NCBI GenBank assembly: GCA_030592645.1
Contig: JAUVIR010000002.1
Coordinates: 8,065-72,064, forward strand
DNA length: 64,000 bases
DNA from: Candidatus Fermentibacterota bacterium
Lineage (GTDB): Bacteria > Fermentibacterota > Fermentibacteria > Fermentibacterales > JCC-6
Direction: 5' to 3'
Shown piece after piece: positions 40,926-64,000 of this stretch. The notes below the pieces were generated by a model that ran no database searches, was not told where the DNA came from, and was given only the letters and a program-made list of their open reading frames with translations. The translations under genes and the position numbers were made by a program. How positions within the stretch are numbered: the stretch's first letter is position 1; the number at the start of each line of letters is the position of its first letter.

Positions 40926-41278
40926 TGAATGCGTATATGCCCTATGTACTCTGCATGATACTCTTCAGCATCGGTATCTACGCGATCCTTTCAAAACGGA
41001 ACATAATTAAGATCATACTGGGAGTAGTGATAGCGGAGTACGCTGTGAACCTTTTTCTTGTTCTTGTTGCCTACAAGGTTGGAGGGAGATCGGCAATTTT
41101 CTCTGAAACACAGGTTATTCTTCCCGAATCGATGGTTGATCCGCTTCCACACGCTCTTGTACTTACATCAATTGTGATCGGGCTCGCCACTACGGCTTTT
41201 CTTATCGCACTTGCAATAAGACTGTACGGTAAATATGGAACCTTTGACATAACAAGAATGCGGGAGTTAAGAGGATGA
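40922..41278 (+). CDS. MrpC/MnhC / NuoK-like subunit
   Basis: 118-aa three-helix membrane protein. NuoK/MnhC-like. Confidence 0.65.
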   Translation: MMNAYMPYVLCMILFSIGIYAILSKRNIIKIILGVVIAEYAVNLFLVLVAYKVGGRSAIFSETQVILPESMVDPLPHALVLTSIVIGLATTAFLIALAIRLYGKYGTFDITRMRELRG

Positions 41279-47934: not shown

Positions 47935-48627
47935 CTAACTGTAATTGGATTCCACGAAATCGCAGAATTCTTCCATACCTTCGCCGGTCTTCGCCGAGAC
48001 GGTGAATACAAGAACGTCAGGATTGAGGCTTCTGCATTCCTCGATGGCCCTGTCCACGTCAAAATCAAGATGGGGGAGAAGATCCATCTTGTTAATTACC
48101 AGTACGTTGATAGTGCTGAAAAGACTGGGGTACTTGAGTATTTTGTCGTCACCCTCGGGTACCGAAAGAAGACCAATTCTCAGGTTTTCACCCAGATCGT
48201 AACCGCTTGGACAAATCAGATTCCCAACATTCTCGATCGCCAGTAACTCCAGTATGTCCGAATCCAGCTCCATCTGATCCATTGCATGTTTTACAGCATG
48301 GGCATCAAGATGGCAGGCGCCTCCGGTTTCTATCTGCCAGGCCTGGCATCCGGCTTTCTCTATCCTCTCAGCATCTCTTCTAGTTTGAATATCACCCTCT
48401 ATGACGGCCATTCTGGAACCGAAATAGTGTGCCATGGATTCCAATACGGTAGTTTTACCGGCACCGGGAGAGCTTATCAGATTAAGAGTGTAGATACCTT
48501 TTCCTTTCAGAAATCCTCTGTTCTCCGCGGCAAAGAGGTCATTTTTATTCATGACTGAAGTAGTTATGTCAATTTTCTGTTCAATTATCTCATCACACAT
48601 ATCAATCCTCTCCTTCTTCCAGTTCAA
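47935..48627 (-). CDS. hypB: Hydrogenase nickel incorporation GTPase HypB
   Basis: SPGAGKTT P-loop, CxxC-containing N-terminus, G-domain motifs. 230 aa. Confidence 0.9.
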   Translation of the reverse strand: MNWKKERIDMCDEIIEQKIDITTSVMNKNDLFAAENRGFLKGKGIYTLNLISSPGAGKTTVLESMAHYFGSRMAVIEGDIQTRRDAERIEKAGCQAWQIETGGACHLDAHAVKHAMDQMELDSDILELLAIENVGNLICPSGYDLGENLRIGLLSVPEGDDKILKYPSLFSTINVLVINKMDLLPHLDFDVDRAIEECRSLNPDVLVFTVSAKTGEGMEEFCDFVESNYS

Positions 48628-48949
48628 CGCTGTCCACAGTGAATTCCCTGCCTGAGAGAATTTTCCTGCTTAACGAACCGCAGTCCGGACAGCCCTGATA
48701 GAAATCCTCTGCTTCATATTCAGTATCGCAATCAAGACAGATAAGCTTTGCCCTGGTTTGATTTATGACCAACTCCGGCTCTCCGAACCCTTCGATCTTT
48801 GCAATTTCTGTAAAGCAGAATCTCAGTGATTCAGGGCTGATCCCCGAAAGGGGACCTACAGTGATATTGACCCGGTCCAGGTGAACTTTCCTTCCCAGAA
48901 CGTTACCTATGATCCTGGTCATGTCGTGGGCAAGAGATAGTTCATGCAT
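48602..48949 (-). CDS. hypA: Hydrogenase nickel insertion protein HypA
   Basis: MHELSLA start and CLDCDTEYE...CPDCGS zinc finger. 115 aa. Confidence 0.85.
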   Translation of the reverse strand: MHELSLAHDMTRIIGNVLGRKVHLDRVNITVGPLSGISPESLRFCFTEIAKIEGFGEPELVINQTRAKLICLDCDTEYEAEDFYQGCPDCGSLSRKILSGREFTVDSVELEEGED

Positions 48950-49005
48950 AGTATAGCCGCCATTCAGTTCAGGGAGGAAACACTGTGGTTAAAACCTTTT
49001 CAGAA

Positions 49006-49014
49006 TGGTAGAAT
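49006..49014 (+). promoter_or_regulatory. Possible extended -10 element (TGgTAGAAT) in the hypA/hypF divergent region
   Basis: Read directly. About 55 nt upstream of the hypF ATG. No convincing -35. Confidence 0.2.
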
Positions 49015-49067
49015 ATAACCTGTATTCAATATGTCAATGAGGATTATTCTATTCTGGAAGATCGGGT

Positions 49068-51335
49068 ATGCAGAGACTGAGGCTTGAGATAAGCGGAGCG
49101 GTTCAGGGAGTAGGTTTCAGACCTTTTGTGTATCGCCTCGCCCATCGCTACGGCCTTGCCGGCTGGGTATCCAACACATCTAAGGGTGTGGTCATCGAAG
49201 TTGACGGTGATACCGAAGTCCTCGCGCAGTTCGCCCAGGCTGTGCTGAATGAAAAACCGTCGGTATCCATCGTACAGAACATAAGCAGCAAGTATCTTCT
49301 TGCGGCGGGATATTCGAGCTTTAAGATACTCAAGAGCACCGGGGGAAAGAGGGAGGCATTCGTGCTTCCGGATCTGGCCACCTGTGGAGATTGTATGCTC
49401 GAGATACTTGACCCGGAGAACAGGAGGTATCGATATCCATTCACGAACTGCACGAACTGCGGTCCAAGATATTCAATAATCAATGCAATTCCCTACGACA
49501 GGCCGCAAACGACAATGTCCAGGTTCAGAATGTGTAGTAAATGCAGGGATGAGTACGAGGATCCTTATGACAGAAGATTCCATGCCCAGCCCAATGCCTG
49601 CCCCCAATGCGGCCCTCATCTTGAACTCTGGGATTCTGAAGGTATTATCCTGGCAAAGAGGGATGATGCCCTCATAAGAGCTTCGGAAGAGATACTTGAG
49701 GGGAAAATAATTGCGGTTAAAGGGCTCGGAGGCTTTCATCTTATTACTCTTGCCAGCTCTGATGAAGCTGTCCGAACACTCCGTTCCCGCAAGGGAAGGA
49801 AGATGAAGCCGTTTGCGCTTATGTTTCCATCGATTTCCCTTGTTTCCGAATTCTGTATGCTGTCCCACGGGGAAAGAGAGTCCCTTCAGTCGCCCCGTTC
49901 GCCCATCGTTCTTCTTAAAAAACGCGATGATCAGGATTCAGGCATGTGCATCTCTAAACTGGTATCCCCCTCCAACCCTGAATACGGGGTGATGCTGCCG
50001 TACACACCGCTTCATATCCTGCTTATGAAGGAGATCGGAGAGCCGGTGATTGCTACAAGCGGAAACCTCAGCGATGAACCCATCTGCACCGATGAAATCG
50101 AGGCCCTTCATCGCCTGGAAGGTATAGCGGATCTCCTTCTTGTTCATAACCGTCCGATAGCCCGTCATGTTGATGATTCCATTGTAAGAATATTTGATAA
50201 GAAAGAAATGATTCTGAGAAGGGCAAGGGGCTATGCACCGCTGCCTTTGAGTATGGATGAGAAAGCTGTATCCGTCTTAGCAACAGGAGGACATCTGAAG
50301 AATACACTGGCTCTGTCTATCGGGAAGAACGTTTTCACCAGTCAGCATATCGGGGATCTTGAGACCGTACAGGCCCTGGAGGCTTTCGATGAGGTCTGGA
50401 GCAGCATAGAAGCCCTTTACAACGCCGATCCCGAAATTATCGCATACGATATGCATCCGGACTACATCTCCTCGCAGCGTGCAAGAGAATCGCAGATCAG
50501 GAGTATTCCGGTTCAGCATCACATTGCTCATATATATTCCTGCATGCTTGACAGCGGGGTCAGGCCGCCTTTGCTTGGTATTGCTTGGGATGGAACAGGT
50601 TACGGTACCGATGGTACGGTATGGGGGGGGGAATTCTTCCATTTAACAGGCGGAACCGTGAGCAGGATTGCTCATCTGAGGTGCTTCCCCCTGCCGGGCG
50701 GAGAGAAAGCTGCCCGGGAGCCGAGAAGGTCAGCACTCGGTCTTCTCTCCGAGCTGTTCGATGATCCCGGGCAGCACCTTCCTTCGGGCGCGATTATTCC
50801 AGCGGAGATGGCTATCATGAAAAAGATGATATCCTCGAAGCTTAATTCACCTATCACTTCAAGTGCCGGAAGACTGTTCGATGCGGTTGCCTCGATCCTT
50901 GATCTTCATCAGACAATCGAGTTCGAGGGGCAGGCGGCGATGGCCCTTGAGCACGCGATTGGGGATACGGAGACCGATGAATCCTATCCGATCGAAATTC
51001 TTGAACTTGCAGAGAAACCGATGGTCATCGACTGGGCGCCTTTGATCCATGGTATTATCATCGATGCCTCGAACGGGATAGATACCGGCATTATTTCTGC
51101 TAAGTTCCACAATACACTTGCCGAAGGTATTGCTGCAGTTGCCAGGAGAGTTGGAGAGAAAAAGGTTGTTCTCAGCGGCGGCTGTTTTCAGAATGTCTAT
51201 CTTCTGAAGAGGGTTGTGCAAATACTCGAAAAGATTGGTTACAAGGCGTTCATCCACAGAAATCTTCCTCCGAACGATGGAGGTATCGCTCCGGGGCAGG
51301 TTATGGCAGCGCTTATGATGAATTCAGAAAAATGA
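49068..51335 (+). CDS. hypF: Carbamoyltransferase HypF
   Basis: Acylphosphatase domain (VQGVGFRPFV), two CxxC...CxxC zinc fingers (TNCTNCGPRYSI, PNACPQCGP), YrdC and Kae1-like domains. 755 aa. Confidence 0.9.
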   Translation: MQRLRLEISGAVQGVGFRPFVYRLAHRYGLAGWVSNTSKGVVIEVDGDTEVLAQFAQAVLNEKPSVSIVQNISSKYLLAAGYSSFKILKSTGGKREAFVLPDLATCGDCMLEILDPENRRYRYPFTNCTNCGPRYSIINAIPYDRPQTTMSRFRMCSKCRDEYEDPYDRRFHAQPNACPQCGPHLELWDSEGIILAKRDDALIRASEEILEGKIIAVKGLGGFHLITLASSDEAVRTLRSRKGRKMKPFALMFPSISLVSEFCMLSHGERESLQSPRSPIVLLKKRDDQDSGMCISKLVSPSNPEYGVMLPYTPLHILLMKEIGEPVIATSGNLSDEPICTDEIEALHRLEGIADLLLVHNRPIARHVDDSIVRIFDKKEMILRRARGYAPLPLSMDEKAVSVLATGGHLKNTLALSIGKNVFTSQHIGDLETVQALEAFDEVWSSIEALYNADPEIIAYDMHPDYISSQRARESQIRSIPVQHHIAHIYSCMLDSGVRPPLLGIAWDGTGYGTDGTVWGGEFFHLTGGTVSRIAHLRCFPLPGGEKAAREPRRSALGLLSELFDDPGQHLPSGAIIPAEMAIMKKMISSKLNSPITSSAGRLFDAVASILDLHQTIEFEGQAAMALEHAIGDTETDESYPIEILELAEKPMVIDWAPLIHGIIIDASNGIDTGIISAKFHNTLAEGIAAVARRVGEKKVVLSGGCFQNVYLLKRVVQILEKIGYKAFIHRNLPPNDGGIAPGQVMAALMMNSEK

Positions 51336-51348
51336 CAGGAGTATACTG

Positions 51349-51645
51349 ATGTGTCTTGGAGTTCCCGGAAGGATAGAGGAGATATCTGAGAATGATGATC
51401 CTCTCTTTGTAACCGGTAAAGTAAATTTCAGTGGTGTACTGAGGGAGGTCATCCTTGCAGGCATAAAAGATGCGAAGATCGGCGACTGGGTGATCGTTCA
51501 CGCTGGTTTTGCTCTTAACAAACTGAAGGAAGAGGAAGCCTCGGAAGTATTTGAATATCTTAGACAGATATCCGAATTCGGTCAGGACGAGCTTGAGGAC
51601 AGCGAAGGTATCTCAGATCAGAATGAAGAGGCTGGAATAGATTGA
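51349..51645 (+). CDS. hypC: Hydrogenase assembly chaperone HypC/HupF
   Basis: [10 protein letters not shown]-terminus. Confidence 0.85.
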
Positions 51646-52736
51646 AATATGTTTCGGAATACAGGGACAGAGAATCGGCGATTGCGTATGCCGACCTCAT
51701 CAGAAAACTGGTTACACGGGAATGGAGTATCATGGAAGTCTGCGGCGGGCAGACCCATTCTATTGTTAAATACGGTATAGATCAGCTAATTCCCAATTCC
51801 GTAACCCTTATTCACGGACCGGGATGCCCTGTGTGCGTAACTCCAATTGAGCTTATCGATCAGGCCGCAGAGATCGCCGGGTTTGAAAATGTCATCTTCT
51901 GTTCATTTGGAGATATGCTGCGGGTGCCCGGAAGCATAACCGACCTTTTAGGAGTCAAGGCTTCCGGGGGAGATGTGAGAATGGTTTATTCTCCTGTTGA
52001 TGCAGTCCGTATCGCTGCTGCTAATCCGGACAGGGAGATCGTCTTCTTTGCGGTCGGTTTTGAAACCACTGCCCCTGTTACTGCCGCCGCTGTACTCCAG
52101 GCTGAACATCTCGGCCTGAATAATTTTTCACTGCTTGTTTCTCATGTACTTGTTCCTCCGGCGATCGAGGCTGTTCTATCCGGTGAGGACTGTGCTGTAC
52201 AGGGTTTTCTTGCCGCAGGGCATGTCTGCAGCGTGATGGGATATACAGAATACGAACCGATTGCGGAGAAGTATGGTGTACCTATTGTTGTGACCGGTTT
52301 TGAACCGCTTGATATTCTCGAGGGTATTCATATGTGTTTAAAACAGCTCGAAGAGGGCAGAGCGGATGTGGAGAACCAGTACCTGCGGGCGGTTTCGAGG
52401 GATGGAAACAGGGCTGCCATAGAAATAATGCGAAGCGTATTTGAGATAACAGACCGCAAATGGCGGGGTATCGGAAGAATCCCGGACAGCGGATTTTCAC
52501 TGAGGGAACGATTCGCGGGGTTCGATGCCGGAAAGAGATTCGAAGTTGGCAGCCATGAAGTGGACGAACCGGAGATCTGTATTTCCGGGGAGGTTCTAAG
52601 GGGTAACAAGAAGCCTTTTGAATGTGAAGCATTCGGAAAAGAGTGTACTCCCGAGCGTCCCCTCGGAGCACCAATGGTATCATCCGAAGGAGCCTGTGCA
52701 GCTTATTATCGCTACAGGCTGTCAAGGAAAAGATGA
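51642..52736 (+). CDS. hypD: Hydrogenase expression/formation protein HypD (TTG start)
   Basis: MKYVSEYRD start, [10 protein letters not shown] and FEC..C motifs. 364 aa. Confidence 0.9.
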
Positions 52737-53791
52737 TGGATACAAGAAAAATAACTGAGATTACATGTCCGATTTCCATTTCGGATTACCCCGAGATCAC
52801 AATGGCCCATGGGGGCGGCGGAAGGCTGATGAACGATCTTATCGGGAAGATCATGCTGAGGGTTTTCTCAAATCCCATTCTGGATGCAAGGCATGACGGT
52901 GCAGTTATTGCAGTGGGGGAGGGCAGACTGGCTTTTGCAACGGATTCACACGTTATTACTCCTTTGTTCTTTCCCGGCGGTGATATCGGTGCTCTTTCAG
53001 TATACGGAACTGTTAACGATCTGGCCATGTGCGGAGCGCATGCAAAGTGGCTAAGTGCCGGTTTCATAATAGAGGAAGGGTTTTCCATGGAGACCCTCTG
53101 GAGGATAGTTCTCTCGATGGCCGAAGCATCAATGAAAACCGGTGTATCGATAGTTACCGGAGATACAAAGGTGGTTGACAGGGGCAAGGGAGACGGCATC
53201 TACATTAATACGGCTGGAATAGGCATCATTCCCCCGGGGATCGACATCGATCCTTCAAGAATTACAGAAGGTGATGCAGTGGTTCTAAGCGGTGATATCG
53301 GAAGGCATGGCATGGCTGTAATGGCCATCCGGGAAGGGATAGAACTGGAGAGTACTATCCGGAGTGATCTGGCCCCCCTTGATTCAATGGTCAGGGATCT
53401 TCTGAGGGAGGAGCTGGATATACACTGCATGAGGGATCTCACCAGGGGAGGTCTTGCCAGCGGATTGAATGAGATAGCTTCCATGGTCGATTCATCAATA
53501 AGGATCGAAGAGAATCTGATACCTGTTCAGGATGAGGTTCAGGGCGCATGCGAGATCCTCGGTTTCGATCCTCTTTACGTGGCGAATGAGGGAAGATTCG
53601 TGGTCATCCTTCCGCGGGAAAACGCTGAGAGGGCTGTGGAAATCCTCAGGCAGCACGATAGCGGGCGTCAGGCTGAGATAATCGGCTTTGTGGAGAAACC
53701 GCAGTACGCCGATGTATTAATGACCAGCAGTATAGGCTCTGAGAGAATTGTCGATATGATGAGTGGTGAACAGCTGCCTCGGATATGCTGA
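52733..53791 (+). CDS. hypE: Carbamoyl dehydratase HypE
   Basis: MAHGGGG motif, PurM-like fold, C-terminal ...PRIC cysteine. ATGA overlap with hypD. The ORF-track start at 52643 is too long. Confidence 0.9.
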
Positions 53792-55263
53792 TACAGATGA
53801 ACATCAATAAGATATCGATGAGAACATGGATGCTGGGTGGTTTTGTTCTGGCAGCAGGATTTCTCCTTTTATCCTACAGCTCTGTATTGTCTCAGTATTT
53901 CTGGGATGAGGACGATTTCGCGTACGTTTCTAATGCTATTAATGAGAATTCCCCTGCCTATATTTTAAACAGTGAATTCTATGTACGGTAGTTTCCCAGA
54001 CCAATTGTACACCTTTACTGCTGGCTAATAGCACTATTCTCGGGTACGGTTATCTGGCCCTATTTTCTTTCAAATCTGCTTCTCTATGCTGCTAGCTCAG
54101 TTCTACTATTCAGACTGGTTCACAGGATGTCAGGAAATCTCACAGCCGGGCTTATCGCTGGAGTATTCTACCTTATCTCTCCCTGTGCAACTGATAGCCT
54201 GTACTGGCTGGCTGCCGGAGCAACAGGTTTCCTTTCAGGTTTCTTTATACTTCTTACAGCCAATATTTACATACAGGCCAGGAGAAGCACCGGCCGTAGA
54301 CTTTGTATCTTTGCGTGGTTCACAGCTGTGCTGGCGATGGGATCCAAAGAGTCCGCTTTATCACTGCCGCTTCTTCTCACCCTTCTGGAATTCTCCGAAA
54401 GCGAATCCAGGAAGGGATGGTTTCGAAGACTGCTTCCATTCTACTTGATTGCATTCCTCTTTGTTCTGAATGTAGCTCTTATTCAGCTGTCTTATCCGAA
54501 TGATGGTAATTTCTCAAGGTACGGGCTCAGTTGGATGATTCCCAGGAATTTGCTTCACTACTTCATCTACCCGCTCGCAGGAGCTATGCCTCCAAATATT
54601 GGAGAATACACACTGATCAAATTGATTGTCTATCCGGTAATGTGGATCCTGCCTCTGTTTTTAGGATCAGAGAGGGCGAAGAAACTTACTCTACTGGGAT
54701 TTGGATGGATCGGAATATCATCCTTACCTTTCCTTTCATGGATTATGGATTTTGAAGGGTTTCTCCCGAGGGTTTGTGATATACCTTCACGCTACTTCAA
54801 CATTCCATCCATGGGGGCTTCTATGGTTGTTTGCGGATTCTGTTTAATGCTGCACGATAGATTCAGAAAAACCATCTCGATTATCACCGCTGTTCTTATT
54901 CTTGTTTTCATGGTGTTCACGAGTGTTCAGTGGACCCATAAGAAGGTGCAGCCCATTGTTCATTCTGCTGAAACGGAAGCCTGTCTGGTGGATATTGCCC
55001 TATCATCATGGAATGGTGCAAATTGCTTATATATCGGTGCTTTCGGACTAAGTGAGTTCCGTATTGATTGCTATAACAAAATGTATTTTCACGGAAGCCT
55101 GATACAGGTAGATCCTTTTCCGTTAGATGCTCCAGCAGGTGCTCGAATGCTCTGCGGTCCAGCAGCCACACCAAGGCTTTACATATTTGATGGAAACAGA
55201 TGGAGTGTTGAAAGGTCTTTTGATAGTTGTGCCCGAACCACGGAAATCATCGAGGATAGGTAG
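53785..55263 (+). pseudogene. GT-C fold membrane glycosyltransferase (PMT/ArnT-like) interrupted by a single in-frame TAG at 53989-53991
   Basis: ORFs 53785-53991 and 54127-55263 are in the same frame. The 135 nt between them have no other stop and encode ...FPRPIVHLYCWLIALFSG... (GT-C loop motif). The N-terminus has the WDEDDFAY acidic motif. Confidence 0.5.
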
Positions 55264-55281: not shown

Positions 55282-56490
55282 TTATTTCGGGAAGTAGCCC
55301 CTTGACTGAACTTCGTCCTTTGGAACCCTGAGAACGGGTCTTATCAGAGGACCTTCATCTTTCGGACAGATGTTGATATCGAAACCGAAGATACTGCCTT
55401 TTCCCGGCTCACTGATAACGTAGACCCTTCCTCCATGCATGTCGACAATACGTTTGGCTATAGAAAGCCCAAGTCCGATTCCAGCGACTTTCTGACCCGA
55501 AACATCGTTGTTCTTGATCCTTACGAACTCCCTGAAGAGTTTCTTCTGATTATCCTCTGAGATACCGATACCGTTGTCTTCCACTTCCACAGACACCACG
55601 CACCTGCCCATGGTTCTGCTTCGGACTACGATACTGCCATTTTCCGGAGAGTATTTAATAGCGTTTGTGACGAGATTTGTAATCACCTCACGGAGGAGCC
55701 GTTCAACGCCTCCAACAGTAGGCAGATCAGCATCAAGGTCAGATGTCAGCTTGTGATATTTGTGATGCGCAAGATCCTGATTCGCCCGGACAACATCACT
55801 GATAAGTTCGTTAAGGTTGATCTCCTTCGCCTGTTTCTTCAGCTGAGTTGGATCCTCCAGCTGCGCGAAAAGCTGGAAATCGCGCAGAAATGATGCTGCT
55901 TCGTCCAGTCTTGCATGCATCCTGTCGATAAGATGTTCCTGTTTCACTGAGAGAGAATCTCCAAGAAGGGTCTGGAGACTATGAAGCAGCATGGTCGTAG
56001 CCGAAACCGGAGACTTCATGTCATGTATGGCGATGTGAAGGAATGCCTTCCTGAGCTTTGCGAATTCCCTGAGTGAAGAATTGGTTTTTCTGAGTCTCTC
56101 GCTCCGTTCACGCAGCGCTTTGTGTGTCTTCTTCAGTTCAATACTGAGCTCTCCAATAACCAGGGCTACAATAATGAAAGAGAGAACACGAAGTGTATTC
56201 GCCCAGAGGGGGCATCCGCATTGGGCAAGAAGGCTGAAGAAAAACACATCTACCCCGAGTATAACAGCCACGAAGATGGCTTTCCTGCCCCACCAGAAAC
56301 CGGCGAAAATAATGGGTATATAGGCGAAATGAGTGTATCCGATACCCTCGCTACGATCCAGATGGAAATATGCGGTGACTGCTGTAAAAGCAATCATAAG
56401 AACAGAAATGATAACGAATCTGTTAGCAGCGCTTGGGACGCTGTCCTGCATAATTCCAGGCTGCTTCAATCTAGTTTTACCTTCTGTCAT
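55282..56490 (-). CDS. Sensor histidine kinase (polytopic N-terminal membrane domain, HisKA, HATPase_c), no adjacent response regulator
   Basis: H-box (FLHIAIHDMKSP), N-box (NLVTNAIKYS), G-boxes (DNGIGI, GIGLGLSI). Confidence 0.8.
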   Translation of the reverse strand: MTEGKTRLKQPGIMQDSVPSAANRFVIISVLMIAFTAVTAYFHLDRSEGIGYTHFAYIPIIFAGFWWGRKAIFVAVILGVDVFFFSLLAQCGCPLWANTLRVLSFIIVALVIGELSIELKKTHKALRERSERLRKTNSSLREFAKLRKAFLHIAIHDMKSPVSATTMLLHSLQTLLGDSLSVKQEHLIDRMHARLDEAASFLRDFQLFAQLEDPTQLKKQAKEINLNELISDVVRANQDLAHHKYHKLTSDLDADLPTVGGVERLLREVITNLVTNAIKYSPENGSIVVRSRTMGRCVVSVEVEDNGIGISEDNQKKLFREFVRIKNNDVSGQKVAGIGLGLSIAKRIVDMHGGRVYVISEPGKGSIFGFDINICPKDEGPLIRPVLRVPKDEVQSRGYFPK

Positions 56491-56555: not shown

Positions 56556-57992
56556 TTAGTTAATTATCCACAGAGCAACCGAATCCTCGCCGCATATAAC
56601 GTTTCTATCACTTCTGTAACCCATTAGGAAATCGAGCGATTCTCCGGCTTCCAGAATGAGATTTGAATACTGTTCGGGGAACGCCAGCAGGTAATCCGAC
56701 CTCTCCTTTATCCATTGCCAGCCTTCTCTATAAGACCCTGGAAGTCTCTGCGAAGTAACAAGACCATCAAGGTCCAGGATTTCCATGCCGGTTATCCATT
56801 TTACAGCTCCGATATCGGCTGCTGCAACAGTTTGCCCGGTGGATACGATAGAGGATAAGTACTGTGCCGGCCTTACATCTATGGAGTATACATCGCCCGA
56901 AGCGTCCGCTCTCCTTCCGGCGAAGATAAAAAGACCCGGCAGCATGGAAACGGCAAGGATAAAAACGTTCAGTTTTCTTCTTCGGATCCCTCCAAGCCAG
57001 TGACTGGTAGCAAGAACTGCTGCAGTAAGGGCTGGTACGTAATACCGCATCTGAAAGAAACTATTCGGCTGAAGGTAAAGAGATGAAGCAAAAAGCAGCA
57101 GCGGGATAAGCGCAAGCGATACTTCAGACCGTCTTTTTACACTGCTCCTTAACAATCCTGCGATAGCGGCAACAGTCGTGAAAAGCAGAAGTGGGGATGT
57201 AAGGAGAAGTCCTTTGAGAAGGCCGGGCATACCTGAAGCTGCAGAAGTGAACCATGAGACCGGCTGCTTGGCGTAAAATGTGGAAGGGAGCGGTAGACCC
57301 ATGGAATGGATATTCCATAACAGCCAGAGAAGGCCGGCGATCAGAGATGGGGCCGCAAGGCGAAGTATATTTACACGAGTTCTCTCTTTAAGGGAGAGGC
57401 CAAGAGGTATGGCAAGCAGAGCAAGTTCGGGTCTGGCAAGGAATGCTCCCATAAGAATGAAGGATGTAACTGTAATTCCTGTTCCGTCCCGTGCGCATCT
57501 CCATACCGCTACTACAGCCAGACATGAGAGGGCAGTTTCCATTCCGCTTGCAGCATGGAAGAAGAACGGACCGGTCATAAGAAGAAGTATTCCTGCAAAG
57601 GGAGGAAGCATGAAGAGAGCTGTGCCTGCTGCCAGCAGAGAAAAAAGCATCAGTACAGCAGGAGCCCATCCGGTTCCGGCAAGAGAAGCAATTGCAGATG
57701 GAAGGAGCCATAGAGGGCTTGTGAATCCAGATGATGGTTCTGCATCGTTGAAACAGAGCGGTGCGGATGTGAAGAGACTTCTGCCGTAGACCAGATGAAT
57801 ATAGGTGTCATCCATGGGAGGGATGTGAACATTGTCCCCGATTATTATCAGTAGAATCACTCCACCGAGCAGTAGCAGCGGAACAGTGAAGTGAACGGAT
57901 TTCTTTCTTTTTACGGGCTTTTTCATACTGATTCTATCACCCTCATTCCGCTCATCGTCAAGGGCGGCAGGGTATCCTTTTGCAGTGGACAA
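56556..57992 (-). CDS. GT-C fold membrane glycosyltransferase (ArnT/PMT-like), paralogue of 45231-46832
   Basis: DDTYIHLVYGRSL acidic loop motif and GFTSPLW, shared with the 45231 ORF. About 12 transmembrane helices. 478 aa. Confidence 0.5.
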   Translation of the reverse strand: MSTAKGYPAALDDERNEGDRISMKKPVKRKKSVHFTVPLLLLGGVILLIIIGDNVHIPPMDDTYIHLVYGRSLFTSAPLCFNDAEPSSGFTSPLWLLPSAIASLAGTGWAPAVLMLFSLLAAGTALFMLPPFAGILLLMTGPFFFHAASGMETALSCLAVVAVWRCARDGTGITVTSFILMGAFLARPELALLAIPLGLSLKERTRVNILRLAAPSLIAGLLWLLWNIHSMGLPLPSTFYAKQPVSWFTSAASGMPGLLKGLLLTSPLLLFTTVAAIAGLLRSSVKRRSEVSLALIPLLLFASSLYLQPNSFFQMRYYVPALTAAVLATSHWLGGIRRRKLNVFILAVSMLPGLFIFAGRRADASGDVYSIDVRPAQYLSSIVSTGQTVAAADIGAVKWITGMEILDLDGLVTSQRLPGSYREGWQWIKERSDYLLAFPEQYSNLILEAGESLDFLMGYRSDRNVICGEDSVALWIIN

Positions 57993-58061
57993 AGACCCTC
58001 AATCGTGTTAAAATTATGGTATATGTGCAACTGATTACAGAACTACCCGGGAGACTGTTTA

Positions 58062-58433
58062 TTGAGAATTATCGGTGTTGGAATAGATATAGTTGACATC
58101 GGTATTTTCAAGAGCCGTCTTGATGATGGAATGATAGCAGAGCTGTTTCTTCCGGGGGAAATTGAATACTGTTCATCCAGGGCGCGTCCATGGGAGAGCT
58201 ATGCGGCCAGATTTTCCGCGAAGGAAGCATCCTTCAAAGCGCTTGGTGTCGGGTTATCTTCGGGACTGCGCTGGAAAAATGTCGAAATAATCAAAGAGGA
58301 GTCCGGTGCAGTATCCGTGAAGCTAAGCGGGAAAGCGCTGGAACAGGCAGGGAATTTAAAGGTAAAGCAGATACGTCTTTCCATCAGTCATTCCGGTGAA
58401 AGCGCCATAGCTGTTGTCACTATGGAGGGCTGA
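58062..58433 (+). CDS. acpS: Holo-[acyl-carrier-protein] synthase (TTG start)
   Basis: IGVGIDIVDI N-terminal motif and FSAKEA...K ACPS family core. 123 aa. Confidence 0.75.
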   Translation: MRIIGVGIDIVDIGIFKSRLDDGMIAELFLPGEIEYCSSRARPWESYAARFSAKEASFKALGVGLSSGLRWKNVEIIKEESGAVSVKLSGKALEQAGNLKVKQIRLSISHSGESAIAVVTMEG

Positions 58434-58462
58434 AGGAGAATCGAAGGATTGGAGGAGTCAAC

Positions 58463-60211
58463 TTGAGTAATATCGGGTCTTACAACGATGGAATGAAGGA
58501 TTTCAACTGGGATATAGCAAAGGATATTCTTGACTGGAAGGAAGGAGAAATCCTCAACATTGGAGCCATCTGCTCGGACAGGATCTGCAGCAGAGGTGAT
58601 GGGAATAAAACAGCCCTTATATGGGAAGGTTTCGGTGATAAGAGCGCCAGGTATACTTTCGACGATCTAAGAGTTTACTCGAACGGATTCGCTGATTTTC
58701 TAAGCAAGCAGGGTATTCAGCCTGGTGACAGGGTCTGTATTTTTATGGATAAGATCCCGAGTCTCTATTTCTCTTTCCTCGGCATTCTCAAACTTGGCGC
58801 AATCGCGCAGCCGCTTTTCTCAGCATTTGGTGATGAGTCTCTGGAAGTGAGGCTTGCCAGTGCGGGAACCAGGGCGATTATCACAACTCGCAAGCATGCC
58901 CGGAAAGTCCGGAAGATCAAGGACAGGTTGCCGGATCTGGAGAAGATCATAGTTGTAGAGGGAAACCCTGAAAAGCTGAAGGAAGGGGAGATATTCTTCG
59001 ATGTGGAGAAGAGCCCCAGAGTTGAGAAATTCGATGTCTACCATTCCACGCCGGAAACCCCTTCTGTTCTTCATTACACCTCCGGGACAACAGGTCAGCC
59101 TAAGGGTGCCCTTCATGTTCACAATTCCATCTGGGGCCAGGCACTTACAACCAGCTGGGTTCTTGATCTGCAGGATGATGATATATACTGGTGTACAGCG
59201 GATCCCGGATGGGTTACCGGAACAAGCTACGGTATTATCGGACCTTGGGCACTGGGCGCAACACAATGTGTTCTGGATTCAGGCTTCACATCTTCAAGAT
59301 GGTATAAGTTCATTCAGGATAACCGGATAACCGTGTGGTATTCAGCCCCTACAGCTATCAGGGCATTGATGAAGGATGGTAATGAGTTAGTCAGTTCCTT
59401 TGATCTTTTATCGCTTCGGCACCTTGCTTCAGTTGGCGAGCCGCTGAATGCAGAGGCGGTTATATGGAGCGGGGAAGTATTCAGAGGGCTCAAATTCCAC
59501 GATACTTTCTGGCAGACGGAAACCGGTGCCATGATGATTACGAACTTCCCTGGAATGGAAATACGACCTGGTTCAATGGGCAAGCCTTTTCCAGGGATAA
59601 AGGCCGCTGTCCTTGACCTTGATACTCACGAACCCCTGGATGAGTCCGGAAAGGTAGGGCTGATAGCTTTCCGTCCCGGATGGCCGTCGATGTTCAGGCA
59701 GTACTGGAAGCAGCTTGATACTTACAGGAGCAAGTTCGTTGGAGCTGCTGAGAATGCCATGCCTGATGAACTCAGGACCAATCCCGATCTCTGGTACGTC
59801 TCTGGAGATAGAGCAAGCATCGATAAGGATGGATACTACTGGTTCGTGGGCAGGGACGATGATGTAATAAACACAGGAGGACATCTCGTGGGGCCCTTCG
59901 AAATCGAATCAGCTCTTGTCGAGCATGAAGCCATTGCAGAGGCTGCTGCGGTTGGCAAACCGGACAAAGTTAATATGGAAGTTGTGAAGGCATTCGTTAC
60001 ATTGAAACCGGGTTACGAGCCTTCTGATGAACTTGAGCTGGATATCATGAACTTCATAAGGAAAAGGCTTTCTCCGCTGGCGATGCCTCAGGAGATTGAG
60101 TATCGTGATAAACTGCCGAAAACACGTTCGGGCAAGATCGTCAGAAGATATCTCAGAGCAATTGAATGGGGAGAAGAGGTTGGCGATATGTCATCCTTTT
60201 CCGACGAATAG
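58463..60211 (+). CDS. AMP-forming acetyl-CoA synthetase-like ligase (short ACS family form; TTG start)
   Basis: YTSGTTGQPKG AMP-binding motif. C-terminal region (WYVSGD...DGYYWFVGRDDDVIN..GH, LPKTRSGKIVRR) closely parallels E. coli Acs. 582 aa. Confidence 0.8.
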   Translation: MSNIGSYNDGMKDFNWDIAKDILDWKEGEILNIGAICSDRICSRGDGNKTALIWEGFGDKSARYTFDDLRVYSNGFADFLSKQGIQPGDRVCIFMDKIPSLYFSFLGILKLGAIAQPLFSAFGDESLEVRLASAGTRAIITTRKHARKVRKIKDRLPDLEKIIVVEGNPEKLKEGEIFFDVEKSPRVEKFDVYHSTPETPSVLHYTSGTTGQPKGALHVHNSIWGQALTTSWVLDLQDDDIYWCTADPGWVTGTSYGIIGPWALGATQCVLDSGFTSSRWYKFIQDNRITVWYSAPTAIRALMKDGNELVSSFDLLSLRHLASVGEPLNAEAVIWSGEVFRGLKFHDTFWQTETGAMMITNFPGMEIRPGSMGKPFPGIKAAVLDLDTHEPLDESGKVGLIAFRPGWPSMFRQYWKQLDTYRSKFVGAAENAMPDELRTNPDLWYVSGDRASIDKDGYYWFVGRDDDVINTGGHLVGPFEIESALVEHEAIAEAAAVGKPDKVNMEVVKAFVTLKPGYEPSDELELDIMNFIRKRLSPLAMPQEIEYRDKLPKTRSGKIVRRYLRAIEWGEEVGDMSSFSDE

Positions 60212-60231
60212 GTAACAGAAAGGAGCTGAAC

Positions 60232-60480
60232 ATGGATGAGATGAAGAAAACCGTACTGGAGTACATAGCCGATGAGTACCTTGATGAGGATGATGAGGAC
60301 GAAGTTTCCTATGATTCTCCTCTGATCTCTTCTGGAATCGTAGACAGTTTCTCAATGGTATCCCTGAAAAGATTCCTTGAGACAAAGTACAGCATTAAAC
60401 TCTCCGATGAAGAAGCTACGCCGGAAGCTTTTGATACAGTGAACTCAATCTGCACTCTGGTTAACAAACATCTGGGATAA
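60232..60480 (+). CDS. Acyl/peptidyl carrier protein-like (PP-binding) small acidic protein
   Basis: 83 aa. Conserved-serine context LISSGIVDSFSMVSL (DS motif of phosphopantetheine attachment). Very acidic N-terminus. Confidence 0.55.
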   Translation: MDEMKKTVLEYIADEYLDEDDEDEVSYDSPLISSGIVDSFSMVSLKRFLETKYSIKLSDEEATPEAFDTVNSICTLVNKHLG

Positions 60481-60496
60481 ACGGAGGTAGGATCGT

Positions 60497-61744
60497 ATGG
60501 CGTTTTCAGATAGTACTAGAGGCCTGTTTACAGATGAGATAGAAAAAATCAAGGAAGACGGTCTCTTCAAAGAAAAAAGATTCATCTGCTCCGAGCAGGA
60601 CGCGGAAATTGAAGTGGAGTATCCCGAGGGCGCGCCCCATGCGAAAGTCCTTAATTTCTGCGCGAATAATTATCTGGGGCTCTCAAGTCACCCTGATGTG
60701 ATAAAAGCGGCCCACGAAGGTCTTGATACCCGGGGTTACGGAATGAGTTCAGTCCGGTTCATCTGCGGTACACAGGACATTCACAGGGAATTGCAGGATA
60801 AAGTGTCTGTCTTTCTGGGTATGGAAGATACACTTCTGTTCCCCTCCTGCATGGATGCCAATTCCGGTGTTTTCGAGGCGATACTGGGGCAGGAGGATGT
60901 GATCATAGCCGACAGGCTCATCCACGCCTCCCTTGTGGACGGTATACGTCTCTGTTCTGCAGAGTATGATACTTTCAAGCACATGAACATGAAACATCTG
61001 AAGAAAAAACTCGAGCTTCACCAGGACAAGAGAACCAGGCTGGTGGTAACCGATGGCGTATTCTCTATGGATGGCGATCTGGCACCACTGGATGAAATGG
61101 TAGATCTCTGCAATCAGTACGATGCAATGCTGCTGGTGGATGATTCCCATGCTTCAGGTTTTATAGGTAAGACCGGCAGGGGAACCCATGAGCATTTTGG
61201 CGTTATCGACGGTATTGATATCATCACAACTACTTTCGGAAAGGGACTGGGAGGAGCTTCCGGCGGTTGCGTATCCGGCAGGAGTGAACTTATTGAACTC
61301 TGCCGCCAGAAGGCCAGGCCATACCTTTTCAGTAATTCCCTTGCACCTCCTATTGTCAACGGATCCATAAAAGTCATTGATCTAATCTCAAGTTCAACGG
61401 AGCGTCGGGATAAGCTTGAATGGAATACGAAGTACTTCCGTGATAAGATGGAGCAAGCCGGGCTCGATATGCGTCCAGGCGAGACACCGATCGTTCCTGT
61501 CATGTTGTACAATGCAAAGCTGGCTAACGATATGGCCAGGGATATGTATGCTGAGGGAATTTATGTTATCGGGTTCTGTTTCCCGGTTGTCCCTGCTGGA
61601 AAAGCCAGAATACGTGTGCAGCTTTCAGCCGCTCATGAGAAGGAACACCTTGATAAGTGTGTCGGGGCTTTCAGGAAGATCGGCAAAAAATATGGAATAC
61701 TTGGTCTTGGCAAGAACGAGATAATCGAGAAATACGGAAGATAG
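60497..61744 (+). CDS. kbl: Glycine C-acetyltransferase / 2-amino-3-ketobutyrate CoA ligase (alpha-oxoamine synthase family)
   Basis: Long collinear identity with E. coli Kbl (VLNFCANNYLGL, VRFICGTQD, DDSHA.GF.G..GRG.HE, RPYLFSNSLAP, IPVML). PLP lysine context TFGKGLGG. Confidence 0.85.
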   Translation: MAFSDSTRGLFTDEIEKIKEDGLFKEKRFICSEQDAEIEVEYPEGAPHAKVLNFCANNYLGLSSHPDVIKAAHEGLDTRGYGMSSVRFICGTQDIHRELQDKVSVFLGMEDTLLFPSCMDANSGVFEAILGQEDVIIADRLIHASLVDGIRLCSAEYDTFKHMNMKHLKKKLELHQDKRTRLVVTDGVFSMDGDLAPLDEMVDLCNQYDAMLLVDDSHASGFIGKTGRGTHEHFGVIDGIDIITTTFGKGLGGASGGCVSGRSELIELCRQKARPYLFSNSLAPPIVNGSIKVIDLISSSTERRDKLEWNTKYFRDKMEQAGLDMRPGETPIVPVMLYNAKLANDMARDMYAEGIYVIGFCFPVVPAGKARIRVQLSAAHEKEHLDKCVGAFRKIGKKYGILGLGKNEIIEKYGR

Positions 61745-61754
61745 TCAAAACCGG

Positions 61755-61790
61755 AAGGGGACCCGCAGGAGTTGCGTGTCCCCTTTTAAT
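61755..61790 (+). terminator. Rho-independent terminator downstream of kbl
   Basis: AAGGGGAC...GTCCCCTT stem with internal CGCA/TGCG pairing, followed by TTAATT. Confidence 0.5.
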
Positions 61791-61814
61791 TAAAGCTTTC
61801 AATGTATAAGAATC

Positions 61815-61843
61815 GTTGACATGGCGCATCCATAGTGCTATCG
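61815..61843 (+). promoter_or_regulatory. Putative promoter (TTGACA-N17-TATCGT) for yjcH-actP
   Basis: Consensus -35 hexamer read directly. Weak -10. Confidence 0.2.
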
Positions 61844-61921
61844 TGCAGCCTTATATATATGACCGGCAGGGACCCCCCGATCGCCGAATTTTCGATAAAC
61901 ATACCTGAACAGGAGTGCATT

Positions 61922-62224
61922 ATGGACCATGGACCTGCCGTAGAATACCATGAGTGCGAAGAACTATTGAAGTACAAACAGAAGGCAGGCTTACGTCTCT
62001 TCTTTATTTACTCGGGCATATACGGTGTATTTGTGCTCCTTAACACCGTTTTCCCGAGTATGATGGAGTCCGTCATATTCTTCGGTCTTAACCTCGCAAT
62101 AGTCTACGGGATAGGTCTGATACTCATCGCTATCATCCTCGGGCTGCTATATAACCATCAGTGCACTAAAATGGAGAAGCGTCTCGACACCAGCAGTAGT
62201 AAGTCCCAGGGAGTCTCCGAATGA
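61922..62224 (+). CDS. yjcH: DUF485 small inner-membrane protein (YjcH-like), partner of ActP
   Basis: About 100 aa, two transmembrane helices. LKYKQKAGLRLFFIYSGIYGVFVLL resembles the YjcH family. Stop overlaps the actP start (ATGA). Confidence 0.6.
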   Translation: MDHGPAVEYHECEELLKYKQKAGLRLFFIYSGIYGVFVLLNTVFPSMMESVIFFGLNLAIVYGIGLILIAIILGLLYNHQCTKMEKRLDTSSSKSQGVSE

Positions 62225-64000
62225 TATACACTGCATCGCCTCTCGCTGTCGGGATCTTTTTCGCGGTCGTAGCCACAGTTCTGGGCATCTCCTTCTACTT
62301 CGGCAGGAAAACTACATCTGCCAAGGGATACTTCGCTGCAGGCGGAACGATCCACTGGTCCGTGAACGGTATCGCTTTCGCGGGTGACTATCTATCCGCT
62401 GCTTCCTTCCTCGGAATCTGCGGCATGATAGCTTTCTCCGGTTTCGACGGTTTCCTCTACTCAATCGGCTACCTGGCTGGGTGGGTTGTGGCTCTTTTTG
62501 TTGTTGCAGAGCCACTGAAGCGCCTGGGCAAGTTCACTTTCGCCGATGCCCTGGACTCCAAGTTCAACTCCAAAGGCATCCGTCTGATGGCAGCAATCAG
62601 CACTCTCGTCGTGTCAATCTTCTACCTTATACCCCAGATGGTCGGCGCGGGTGCCCTGGTTACACCTCTTCTTGGGCTTCCTCACTGGGTGGGCGTAACT
62701 CTTGTGGGCGGAATAGTTATCTTCATAGTGACCACAGCAGGTATGAAGTCCACTACATACGTACAGTTCCTGAAGGGGGGACTCCTTATAGTTTTCTCCA
62801 TCATCCTTGTTTTTATGGTTGTCGACAGGGGTGTTCAGGACGTACCTTACGAGGGATACCATGACTTCATTACCCTGGAGGCGGAACTGACCGAAGGCTC
62901 CGTTACATCCGTGAGTGATCCGGCCTATACCGTTGCGGGTGAATACACGGAGAACGGTCTCCATTTCGTGAAGCTTCAGAGGGACGGCATCAACAACTGG
63001 TGGAACCTCGAATCCGGCACAGGTACCCTTACCGAAGCTCTCACCATAGTTACTCTGGACGATGGATCAGTGCTTTTCAACGGTGCCCCCAGGGAGGACC
63101 AGCTGTTTTATTCCGTGGGCAACATGCACAGGATCATGGTCGATGGTGAACAGGTTGAAGAGGTCCACGGTCTCAATGTCATAAGCTTCCTGGCTGTAAT
63201 CCAGGAGAGCGAGGTTGTCAGGTTCGTGGCCGATGTCTTTACATCCGGTGACGAGAAGGTTCGCATATGGTATCAGAAAGTCACCCCCGGCAACGAGATA
63301 CTCAGCCCCGGTCTCAAGTTCCACATAGATGAGGGCTCCAGTTTCGCAGACAAGATGAATTTTATCTCCCTTATGCTGGCACTTTTCTTCGGGACCGCAG
63401 CCCTGCCTCATGTACTCATCAGATACTACACTGTTCCTACTCCGGCCGCCGCAAGGAAGTCTACTATTGTCGCTATAGCGGCTATAGGATTCTTCTACAT
63501 TCTTACCCTTTACATGGGGCTGGGGGCAATGATAAGCGGGGTTCTGGACGTGGAGAGCTCCAATATGTCCGCTCCGCTTCTTGCACAGTCGTTCGGCACC
63601 CTCATGTTCGCTATTATATCCGCCATCGCTTTCGCGACAGTACTCGGGACCGTCAGCGGTCTCATCGTTGCATCTTCGGGTGCTGTAGCCCATGACTTCA
63701 TAGACAATTTCCTTGGCAGGAAGCTCACCGATCACAAGAAGGTCGTTGCCGGCAAACTTGCTGCCGTAGGAACCGGCATTATCGCCATCCTGCTCGGAAT
63801 TGCTTTCAAGGGCATGAACGTGGCTTTCCTGGTGGGGCTCGCCTTCGCTATTGCAGCTTCCGCTAATCTGCCATCAATACTGATGGTACTTTTCTGGAAG
63901 AAGACCACTGCAAAAGGCATTGCAGCCTCAATAACCACTGGTATCATCTCGGCGCTCGGCATCATCATGCTTTCACCGAGTATGTACACCAGATACGGGC
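62221..64000 (+). CDS. actP: Cation/acetate symporter ActP (sodium:solute symporter family), 3'-partial at window end. Not present in the supplied ORF track.
   Basis: Manual translation from the ATG at 62221 gives AAGGTIHWSVNGIAFAGDYLSAASFLGI, KRLGKFTFADA, ALPHVLIRYYTV, VGLAFAIAAS. All are collinear with E. coli ActP. The frame stays open to base 64000. Confidence 0.85.
   Translation, partial: MIYTASPLAVGIFFAVVATVLGISFYFGRKTTSAKGYFAAGGTIHWSVNGIAFAGDYLSAASFLGICGMIAFSGFDGFLYSIGYLAGWVVALFVVAEPLKRLGKFTFADALDSKFNSKGIRLMAAISTLVVSIFYLIPQMVGAGALVTPLLGLPHWVGVTLVGGIVIFIVTTAGMKSTTYVQFLKGGLLIVFSIILVFMVVDRGVQDVPYEGYHDFITLEAELTEGSVTSVSDPAYTVAGEYTENGLHFVKLQRDGINNWWNLESGTGTLTEALTIVTLDDGSVLFNGAPREDQLFYSVGNMHRIMVDGEQVEEVHGLNVISFLAVIQESEVVRFVADVFTSGDEKVRIWYQKVTPGNEILSPGLKFHIDEGSSFADKMNFISLMLALFFGTAALPHVLIRYYTVPTPAAARKSTIVAIAAIGFFYILTLYMGLGAMISGVLDVESSNMSAPLLAQSFGTLMFAIISAIAFATVLGTVSGLIVASSGAVAHDFIDNFLGRKLTDHKKVVAGKLAAVGTGIIAILLGIAFKGMNVAFLVGLAFAIAASANLPSILMVLFWKKTTAKGIAASITTGIISALGIIMLSPSMYTRYG

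Follow-up and report, generated by a model that had tools for sequence, protein, structure and literature searches.

Why does a gene for a synthase of the Kbl type stand behind genes for a holo-acyl carrier protein (ACP) synthase, an AMP-forming ligase and a small carrier protein, and what would such a synthase do with a carrier of its own? The question is raised by a 64-kb stretch of DNA (the window) from a Candidatus Fermentibacterota bacterium (contig JAUVIR010000002.1, forward-strand positions 8,065 to 72,064). A preliminary description of the window had placed four open reading frames (ORFs) there, acpS, the ligase, the carrier and the synthase, and all four were found at their positions on the + strand. 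It had proposed an amino-lipid pathway and had kept a short-chain analogue as a fallback. That fallback was found to be the best reading, given an acetate pocket kept in 62/62 ligases and a synthase nested within Kbl: the module would by itself carry out the Kbl reaction in a form that depends on a carrier protein, as a short-chain counterpart of the AasR-AcpR-Spt system. We hold the chances for and against this reading to be about equal.

The genome scan used one genome per species, and the 80 best loci were examined for taxonomy. Matches to the module were found in at least 539 species-representative genomes of at least 12 phyla. Linkage was counted only in loci with enough sequence around them (73 for the carrier-synthase pair and 72 for the ligase). 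The synthase gene was present directly 3' of the carrier gene in 69/73 loci (median distance 15 bp), and the ligase gene directly 5' of it in 58/72; of the 86 loci retrieved, 55 showed an acpS gene, nearly always just 5' of the ligase. Three carrier homologues, obtained by exact-sequence lookups from a Gemmatimonadales metagenome-assembled genome (MAG) and other long contigs, contained the same acpS-ligase-carrier-synthase order with products of ~123, 581, 83 and 415 amino acids, respectively, in wholly different flanks. All-against-all clustering of the flanking ORFs gave only one further family common to at least 10 loci, an SDR-type threonine dehydrogenase. Since the four-gene arrangement recurs in dozens of unrelated genomic contexts, it is far beyond chance, and its conservation excludes the coincidental adjacency that the preliminary description had allowed for; the genes form a functional unit.

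The 80 best loci were found in Fermentibacteria, Eisenbacteria, Delongbacteria and Gemmatimonadales, in Acidobacteriota (Aminicenantes, Holophagae, Vicinamibacterales, and Thermoanaerobaculaceae), in Zixibacteria, KSB1, Krumholzibacteria, Calditrichota, Ignavibacteriales and Fibrobacter, and in Bacteroidia (Rikenellaceae, Prolixibacteraceae), Anaerolineae, Clostridia and Planctomycetota. The hosts belong to anaerobic, mostly uncultured phyla, including Fermentibacterota, Acidobacteriota (among them Aminicenantes), Zixibacteria, KSB1, Calditrichota and Fibrobacterota, with some Bacteroidia, Anaerolineae and Clostridia; no cultured organism with the module was identified among the matches listed. 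The nearest genome among these matches was the Guaymas MAG Ca. Fermentibacteria B22_G4, with a carrier 100% and a synthase 97% identical to those of the window, and an exact-sequence lookup of the window synthase returned no record.

Carrier, ligase and synthase

The carrier gene starts with the ATG at 60232, behind the ribosome-binding site AAAGGAG, and encodes 82 amino acids; the Asp-Ser motif (GIVDSF) of the preliminary description stood, whereas its length of 83 did not. With a pI of 4.1 the protein is strongly acidic. Against PF00550 its match was weak (20.0 bits against a cutoff of 20.8), and no curated NCBIfam model passed its cutoff. The nearest solved structures were the type II peptidyl/aryl carriers Bmp1-CP (6cxt), PigG, PltL and DltC, all of which are stand-alone type II carriers charged by free-standing adenylating enzymes. 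The G[IL]VDSF motif with the attachment Ser was invariant in 82/82 carrier orthologues, and conservation of the carrier across phyla was 61-100%. The preliminary description had held that a poorly conserved site would favour a plain Kbl with a chance neighbour, and the site was kept throughout. By its size, its Asp-Ser site and its structure matches the 82-residue protein is a predicted four-helix phosphopantetheine carrier, with the attachment site where helix II would begin; it is likewise the predicted substrate of AcpS, the gene of which is co-operonic in ~60% of the loci. The top NCBIfam match was ACP_for_OlsHI (62 bits against 130). A link to the ornithine-lipid enzymes OlsH/I was rejected, as this score is well below the cutoff; the OlsH paper, according to which OlsH requires neither ACP nor coenzyme A (CoA), was also counted against it.

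The ligase of the window scored 725 bits on the acetate--CoA ligase model NF003313 (AcsA type, PRK04319), for which the cutoff is 729, and the 567-residue module ligase of locus L046 scored 757 bits, above it. The closest solved structure was Bacillus subtilis AcsA (9g79, 528 bits); further acetyl-CoA synthetases came next, among them that of Salmonella enterica (Acs), whose numbering is used here for an alignment of 62 module ligases. The acetate-pocket residues V310, T311, V386 and W414 and the catalytic Lys609 were invariant in 62/62 ligases. This pocket points strongly to acetate as the substrate, or at the most to another acid that is about as small. In the A8 loop, R526 was replaced by Leu in 62/62; this change and S523 to Gly/Ala were the only clade-specific ones among the ligase sites checked. 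The enzyme is probably an acetate:holo-ACP (or CoA) ligase.

A 14-residue insertion, GAAENAMPDELRTNPD, was present at ligase residues ~427-442 (window 59730-59780), before the A7 'SGD' motif. It was absent from B. subtilis AcsA, S. enterica Acs and the 567-residue ligases of other phyla, and was found only in the 581/582-residue ligases of Fermentibacteria, Gemmatimonadales and Eisenbacteria-type loci. The insertion was considered as a general ACP-docking element and rejected because it is confined to this sub-clade.

The alpha-oxoamine synthase (AOS) of the module, named AOS' here, passed the Kbl equivalog models TIGR01822 (573 bits against 493) and NF005394 (566 against 460). The BioF model gave 363 bits (cutoff 426) and the CFB-type Spt model 326 (cutoff 640), the Spt models overall giving 245-326 bits against cutoffs of 500-670. 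Among solved structures the scores were 454 bits for Kbl 7v58, 448 for Kbl 1FC4, 312 for Thermus AONS/KBL, 260 for Spt and ~193 for BioF. With Escherichia coli Kbl (1FC4) AOS' was 52% identical and collinear, which bears out the Kbl-type identity given in the preliminary description. The module synthases were 64-97% identical to AOS' of the window and 51-58% to E. coli Kbl, and nearly all contained exactly 415 residues. The phylogenetic placement that the preliminary description had proposed as a check showed a clade that was monophyletic in 99/100 neighbour-joining bootstraps and nested among canonical Kbl, away from Spt and BioF.

The His that stacks on pyridoxal 5'-phosphate (PLP), the DDSH His (PLP O3'), the Schiff-base Lys, the carboxylate-binding Arg and the ANNYLGL Asn were invariant in 76 module and 17 canonical sequences; the Asp column tested was the second Asp of DDSH (D or E), not the PLP-N1 Asp column. 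The module clade showed a change of the SCFDAN motif to SCMDAN and four other clade-specific substitutions. It has gained Arg140, which precedes the PLP-stacking His by three residues (100% in the module clade, 0% basic in canonical Kbl), and further conserved basic residues, K161, K178, R303, R326 and K406. These gains are compatible with docking of an acidic carrier. The module synthases of Krumholzibacteria, KSB1, Acidobacteriia, Calditrichota, Gemmatimonadales and Thermoanaerobaculaceae were 81-88% identical to a Fibrobacter-type copy; conservation as tight as this between phyla is unusual and may stem either from strong constraint or from a horizontal spread in recent times.

A canonical Kbl was present beside the module in 15 loci, either just 3' of the module synthase or immediately 5' of acpS; in four loci of Bacteroidia the canonical kbl and acpS genes share 4 bp. 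These copies were 55-63% identical to E. coli Kbl and scored above AOS' on the Kbl hidden Markov model (HMM). An SDR-type L-threonine 3-dehydrogenase (TDH; 410 bits against solved TDHs) was found beside the module in 10 loci. Canonical Kbl and/or TDH occurred in 24/76 loci, which ties the module to the threonine/glycine/acetyl node. As judged by sequence, AOS' is not orthologous to the canonical Kbl copies of the same loci and falls in a separate clade. Since canonical Kbl and/or TDH are separately encoded beside the module in these loci, AOS' is taken as a specialised Kbl paralog, and the plain Kbl function which the preliminary description had considered was not borne out. The tight linkage to a private carrier, together with the co-occurring canonical Kbl, suggests that the thiol partner of AOS' differs from CoA. 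The same description had remarked that the synthase is not beside a TDH gene; a tblastn search of the window agreed, detecting no TDH, second Kbl or AcpP-like gene.

Proposed reactions and rival readings

In the proposed mechanism, AcpS would convert the 82-residue apo-carrier into its holo form at Ser39. The Acs-type ligase would adenylate acetate and pass the acetyl group to the phosphopantetheine thiol of the carrier, instead of CoA or in preference to it, and in some lineages a monocarboxylate transporter encoded alongside (ActP/MctC or MFS) would supply the acetate. AOS' would condense the acetyl-S-carrier with PLP-bound glycine to 2-amino-3-ketobutyrate and release the holo-carrier; the product might be reduced by TDH to L-threonine or decarboxylate to aminoacetone. 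The coupled Kbl/TDH reaction was reportedly reversible in vitro in the hands of Marcus & Dekker in 1993. The ATP-driven ligase would keep the acetyl-carrier/holo-carrier ratio far above that of acetyl-CoA/CoA, thereby pushing a condensation that is unfavourable with CoA, and the private carrier pool would keep the flux through the module apart from that through the CoA-dependent catabolic Kbl which is often encoded next door. From the genes we infer the loading of the carrier by the ligase, the use of the acyl-carrier by AOS', the direction of the flux and the fate of the product. A wider proposal, which we hold to be rather unlikely, is a widespread primary-metabolic route in which the private acetyl-carrier pool leads from glycine and external acetate to threonine (by reverse TDH) or to an aminoacetone-derived metabolite. 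If true, the anabolic and catabolic arms of threonine-glycine metabolism would be split between ACP and CoA, as are fatty-acid synthesis and beta-oxidation.

Several observations weigh against carrier-dependent condensation. With CoA, the Kbl equilibrium favours cleavage. If the module and a co-transcribed canonical Kbl ran in opposite directions, a futile cycle would result; where the operon includes a canonical Kbl, a model in which both enzymes run the same way (possibly a catabolic one) is the better fit. In the module ligases the equivalents of the CoA-contacting R194 and R584 were conserved, and R191 was variable. Since these two Arg residues are kept and some module ligases score above the acetate--CoA ligase cutoff, the ligase may still make acetyl-CoA; a signature of lost CoA binding was sought in the ligase and was not decisive, R194/R584 being kept. 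The ligase gene was not adjacent in ~12-19% of the loci, and TDH was adjacent in the 10 loci only and absent from the window. A phmmer search over 1.84 billion representatives gave no carrier-ligase or carrier-AOS fusion, every match being a carrier on its own, save for a few Bmp1-like carrier-thioesterase proteins.

Some of these points are what would be expected if the enzymes were an ordinary acetyl-CoA synthetase and a CoA-dependent Kbl isoenzyme, with the carrier and AcpS put to a different use, the carrier serving perhaps AOS' as a regulatory or structural subunit, or else a pathway whose genes are not linked to the module. The kept Arg equivalents, the ligase scores near or above the acetate--CoA ligase cutoff, the Kbl equivalog cutoff passed by AOS' and the corresponding database annotations all agree with this, as does, in Acidobacteria, a Pat-like GNAT protein encoded next to the ligase, in the manner of a regulated Acs. 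We nevertheless consider it unlikely: the tightest link of the module is that between carrier and AOS' (69/73, ~15 bp), the carrier is conserved between phyla and its attachment Ser does not vary, the AOS' clade has its own SCMDAN motif and gained basic residues, and a redundant CoA-dependent isoenzyme would be unexpected where a second, canonical Kbl is encoded in the same loci. A long-chain or dicarboxylate system would make a sphingoid base, a sulfonolipid or another amino-lipid (Spt/CFAT-like), or carry out a BioF-like step with a pimeloyl-carrier. E. coli BioF does use pimeloyl-ACP. The architecture of ligase, private ACP and AOS also copies that of AasR-AcpR-Spt (PMC9386255). Such a system, and with it the amino-lipid or sphingoid pathway of the preliminary description, is highly improbable in view of the acetate-restricting pocket including Trp414 in 62/62 ligases and of an AOS' that reaches 573 bits with the Kbl model, but 326 with CFB-type Spt and 363 with BioF, and that nests in Kbl; moreover, no lipid genes (ceramide synthase, reductase, acyltransferase) and no bio genes recurred in the 76 neighbourhoods.

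The same enzymes could also run in reverse, as an energy-conserving degradation of threonine. TDH would form 2-amino-3-ketobutyrate, AOS' with the holo-carrier would cleave it to glycine and acetyl-carrier, the reversed ligase would convert acetyl-carrier, AMP and PPi to acetate and ATP, and the transporter would export the acetate. Thiolytic cleavage is the favoured direction of Kbl, and a private carrier would pass this driving force to ATP synthesis; an AMP-forming Acs of Syntrophus reportedly operates in reverse. Canonical Kbl and TDH, the catabolic pair, are co-located with the module, sometimes with translational coupling, in the 24/76 loci mentioned above. We regard this direction as decidedly unlikely and favour the assimilatory one, because ANL ligases normally run to the thioester and the transporters linked to the ligase, of the ActP/MctC and SfMCT types, are known for uptake. 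That acpS is the first gene of the operon suggests that expression is constitutive and not induced by a substrate, which also points to assimilation, and no tdh gene is present in the window. For Fermentibacteria, the Hyd24-12 genomes are reported to contain Pta-AckA, which would serve for ATP, and no amino-acid catabolism (PMC5030696), which again argues for the assimilatory direction.

Literature searches aimed at an Acs-ACP-Kbl cluster retrieved no description, within incomplete coverage that leaves an earlier account elsewhere possible. In databases each part carries a label of its own ('acyl carrier protein', 'glycine C-acetyltransferase', acetate--CoA ligase), and the module is widespread and apparently unrecognised. 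If the carrier does take the place of CoA, the module would be the first carrier-protein-dependent AOS system for a short (C2) chain, and its ligase one of the few Acs-type enzymes to charge a protein thiol. The annotations 'glycine C-acetyltransferase' and 'acetate--CoA ligase' would then have to be re-read in hundreds of MAGs, a new way of acetate assimilation and glycine/threonine interconversion might operate in acetate-rich anaerobic communities, and a natural Kbl that accepts acyl-carrier substrates would be useful for biocatalytic aminoketone synthesis.

Transcription unit and neighbouring genes

The intergenic gaps between acpS, ligase, carrier and synthase were 29, 20 and 16 bp, respectively. 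The acpS gene starts with TTG behind the ribosome-binding site GGGAG, and its product matched PF01648 (E=2e-17) and TIGR00556 (85 bits against 45). The promoter-like site in front of acpS is weak on its own, since 7 such sites were observed against 5.9 expected; the terminator-like hairpin behind the synthase gave a folding energy of -21.7 kcal/mol (z = -3.41 against 200 shuffles), and a separate promoter-like site, also a consensus match, precedes the DUF485/actP-like genes at 61816-61844. From the short gaps, the two promoter-like sites and the hairpin, the four genes look like one transcription unit, with the DUF485 and ActP-like genes as lineage-specific neighbours in a separate one. A riboswitch or leader RNA 5' of the module was considered and rejected, as an Rfam scan of the window and 11 related loci gave no match at the gathering score, all scores being below that level.

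Table 1. Features of the module and its surroundings; positions are those of the whole 64-kb window.
Feature	Position	Strand	Basis or remark
Mrp/complex-I-type antiporter-like subunit	41275-42774		upstream of hyp genes
HypB-like GTPase	47935-48627	-	
HypF	49068-51335		
HypD	51642-52736		
HypE	~52742-53791		
Multi-pass membrane protein	54127-55263	+	no Pfam match
Sensor histidine kinase	55282-56490	-	between the two membrane-protein genes
Multi-pass membrane protein	56556-57992	-	no Pfam match; faint match to LA_3751/3752 putative glycosyltransferases
Promoter-like site, TGGACA-17-TAAAAT with extended TG	57986..58014	+	5' of acpS; consensus match only
acpS, group-I holo-ACP synthase (phosphopantetheinyl transferase), 123 aa	58062..58433	+	PF01648, TIGR00556
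Acs-type AMP-forming ligase, 582 aa	58463..60211	+	AMP-binding and AMP-binding_C, NF003313
Predicted dedicated carrier protein, 82 aa, attachment Ser39 in GIVDSF	60232..60480	+	weak PF00550, structure matches
Module alpha-oxoamine synthase AOS', Kbl paralog, 415 aa	60497..61744	+	TIGR01822
Terminator-like hairpin and U-run	61753..61795	+	folding energy; just 3' of synthase stop codon
DUF485 (yjcH-like) small membrane protein	61922..62224	+	PF04341 E=4e-9
ActP/MctC-family monocarboxylate symporter	62221..64000	+	NCBIfam MctC-like and ActP scores; runs past window end

Monocarboxylate transporters were found to adjoin the ligase or the module in at least three lineages. DUF485 was conserved 3' of the module only in the Fermentibacteria-like loci L008, L018, L021 and L022; ActP/MctC-family homologues adjoin the module in these four and in L024, and ActP was present in a Delongbacteria locus. 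An SfMCT-type L-lactate MFS transporter was present in four other loci. The symporter of the window scored 427 bits on the MctC-like model and 372 on ActP, both below cutoff.

Eight loci contained the carrier-synthase pair without an adjacent ligase (L050, L064 and L071 of Aminicenantes, and L012, L054, L055, L062 and L063). In L064 the ligase is encoded 3.3 kb upstream (+ strand) and is separated from the pair by other genes, and in L055 a 1740-residue secreted subtilase-like protein precedes the pair. In such genomes a ligase may act on the carrier in trans, or a different enzyme may load it. In two acidobacterial loci, L025:2844-4199 (-) and L037:1-381 (-), the ligase-carrier pair was found without the usual 415-residue synthase downstream, and a divergently transcribed TIGR01825-type 'BioF/Kbl family' synthase (36% identical) was present upstream instead. 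A CoA-transferase-GNAT (Pat-like) fusion follows downstream in both and in three other acidobacterial loci; the presence of a Pat-like protein near the ligase is reminiscent of the control of Acs by lysine acetylation.

Further upstream in the window, the hydrogenase-maturation (hyp) genes at 47935-53791 and the antiporter-like subunit of Table 1 suggest an energy-converting hydrogenase region. The 478-residue membrane protein and the histidine kinase (families 20 and 25) were syntenic with the module in Fermentibacteria loci only.

Comparison with known systems

The Tdh-Kbl pair (E. coli kbl-tdh, EC 2.3.1.29) is matched by AOS' in its 52% identity, in the catalytic residues checked and in the Kbl HMM cutoff passed. 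Canonical Kbl works with CoA/acetyl-CoA and has no carrier, ligase or phosphopantetheinyl transferase partner, whereas AOS' forms a distinct clade that coexists with it. The ligase has the acetate pocket of E. coli acs-yjcH-actP and of B. subtilis AcsA (PDB 9g79), with identical residues and the equivalent of the regulatory or catalytic Lys609, and in Fermentibacteria the module is likewise followed by DUF485 and ActP-family genes. It differs in having the carrier and AOS genes between ligase and transporter, in R526 to Leu, and in its presumed acceptor, which would be a protein-bound phosphopantetheine. An acetyl group is placed on a dedicated carrier, the gamma-subunit ACP of citrate lyase, by CitC, an ATP-dependent acetate:SH-ACP ligase. 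CitC is, however, unrelated to the ANL ligases, the citrate lyase ACP bears 2'-(5''-phosphoribosyl)-3'-dephospho-CoA, and the acetyl group serves there as a catalytic primer.

In the sphingolipid literature, the Black Sea survey of Spt includes Kbl-like sequences as an outgroup only. The AasR-AcpR-Spt system of Caulobacter crescentus and other Rhodobacteria is an experimentally established triad of ligase, private ACP and AOS for the first step of sphingolipid synthesis (PMC9386255). It uses a long-chain acyl-ACP synthetase and a decarboxylative, L-serine-dependent Spt to form a lipid base, whereas the module contains an Acs-type ligase with an acetate pocket and a Kbl paralog that would use glycine without decarboxylation. 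The module carrier is PCP/DltC-like and not AcpR-like, acpS is often in the operon, and no lipid genes are linked. Of the features of AasR-AcpR-Spt-type systems, a long-chain substrate, an Spt-type AOS and ceramide genes were absent from the module, and genetic linkage across taxa was found. Both systems have an ANL-family ligase and a small specialised ACP gene immediately 5' of that for the AOS. In AasR-AcpR-Spt the ligase loads the private carrier and the AOS then condenses the acyl group with an amino acid, and the module would follow the same logic.

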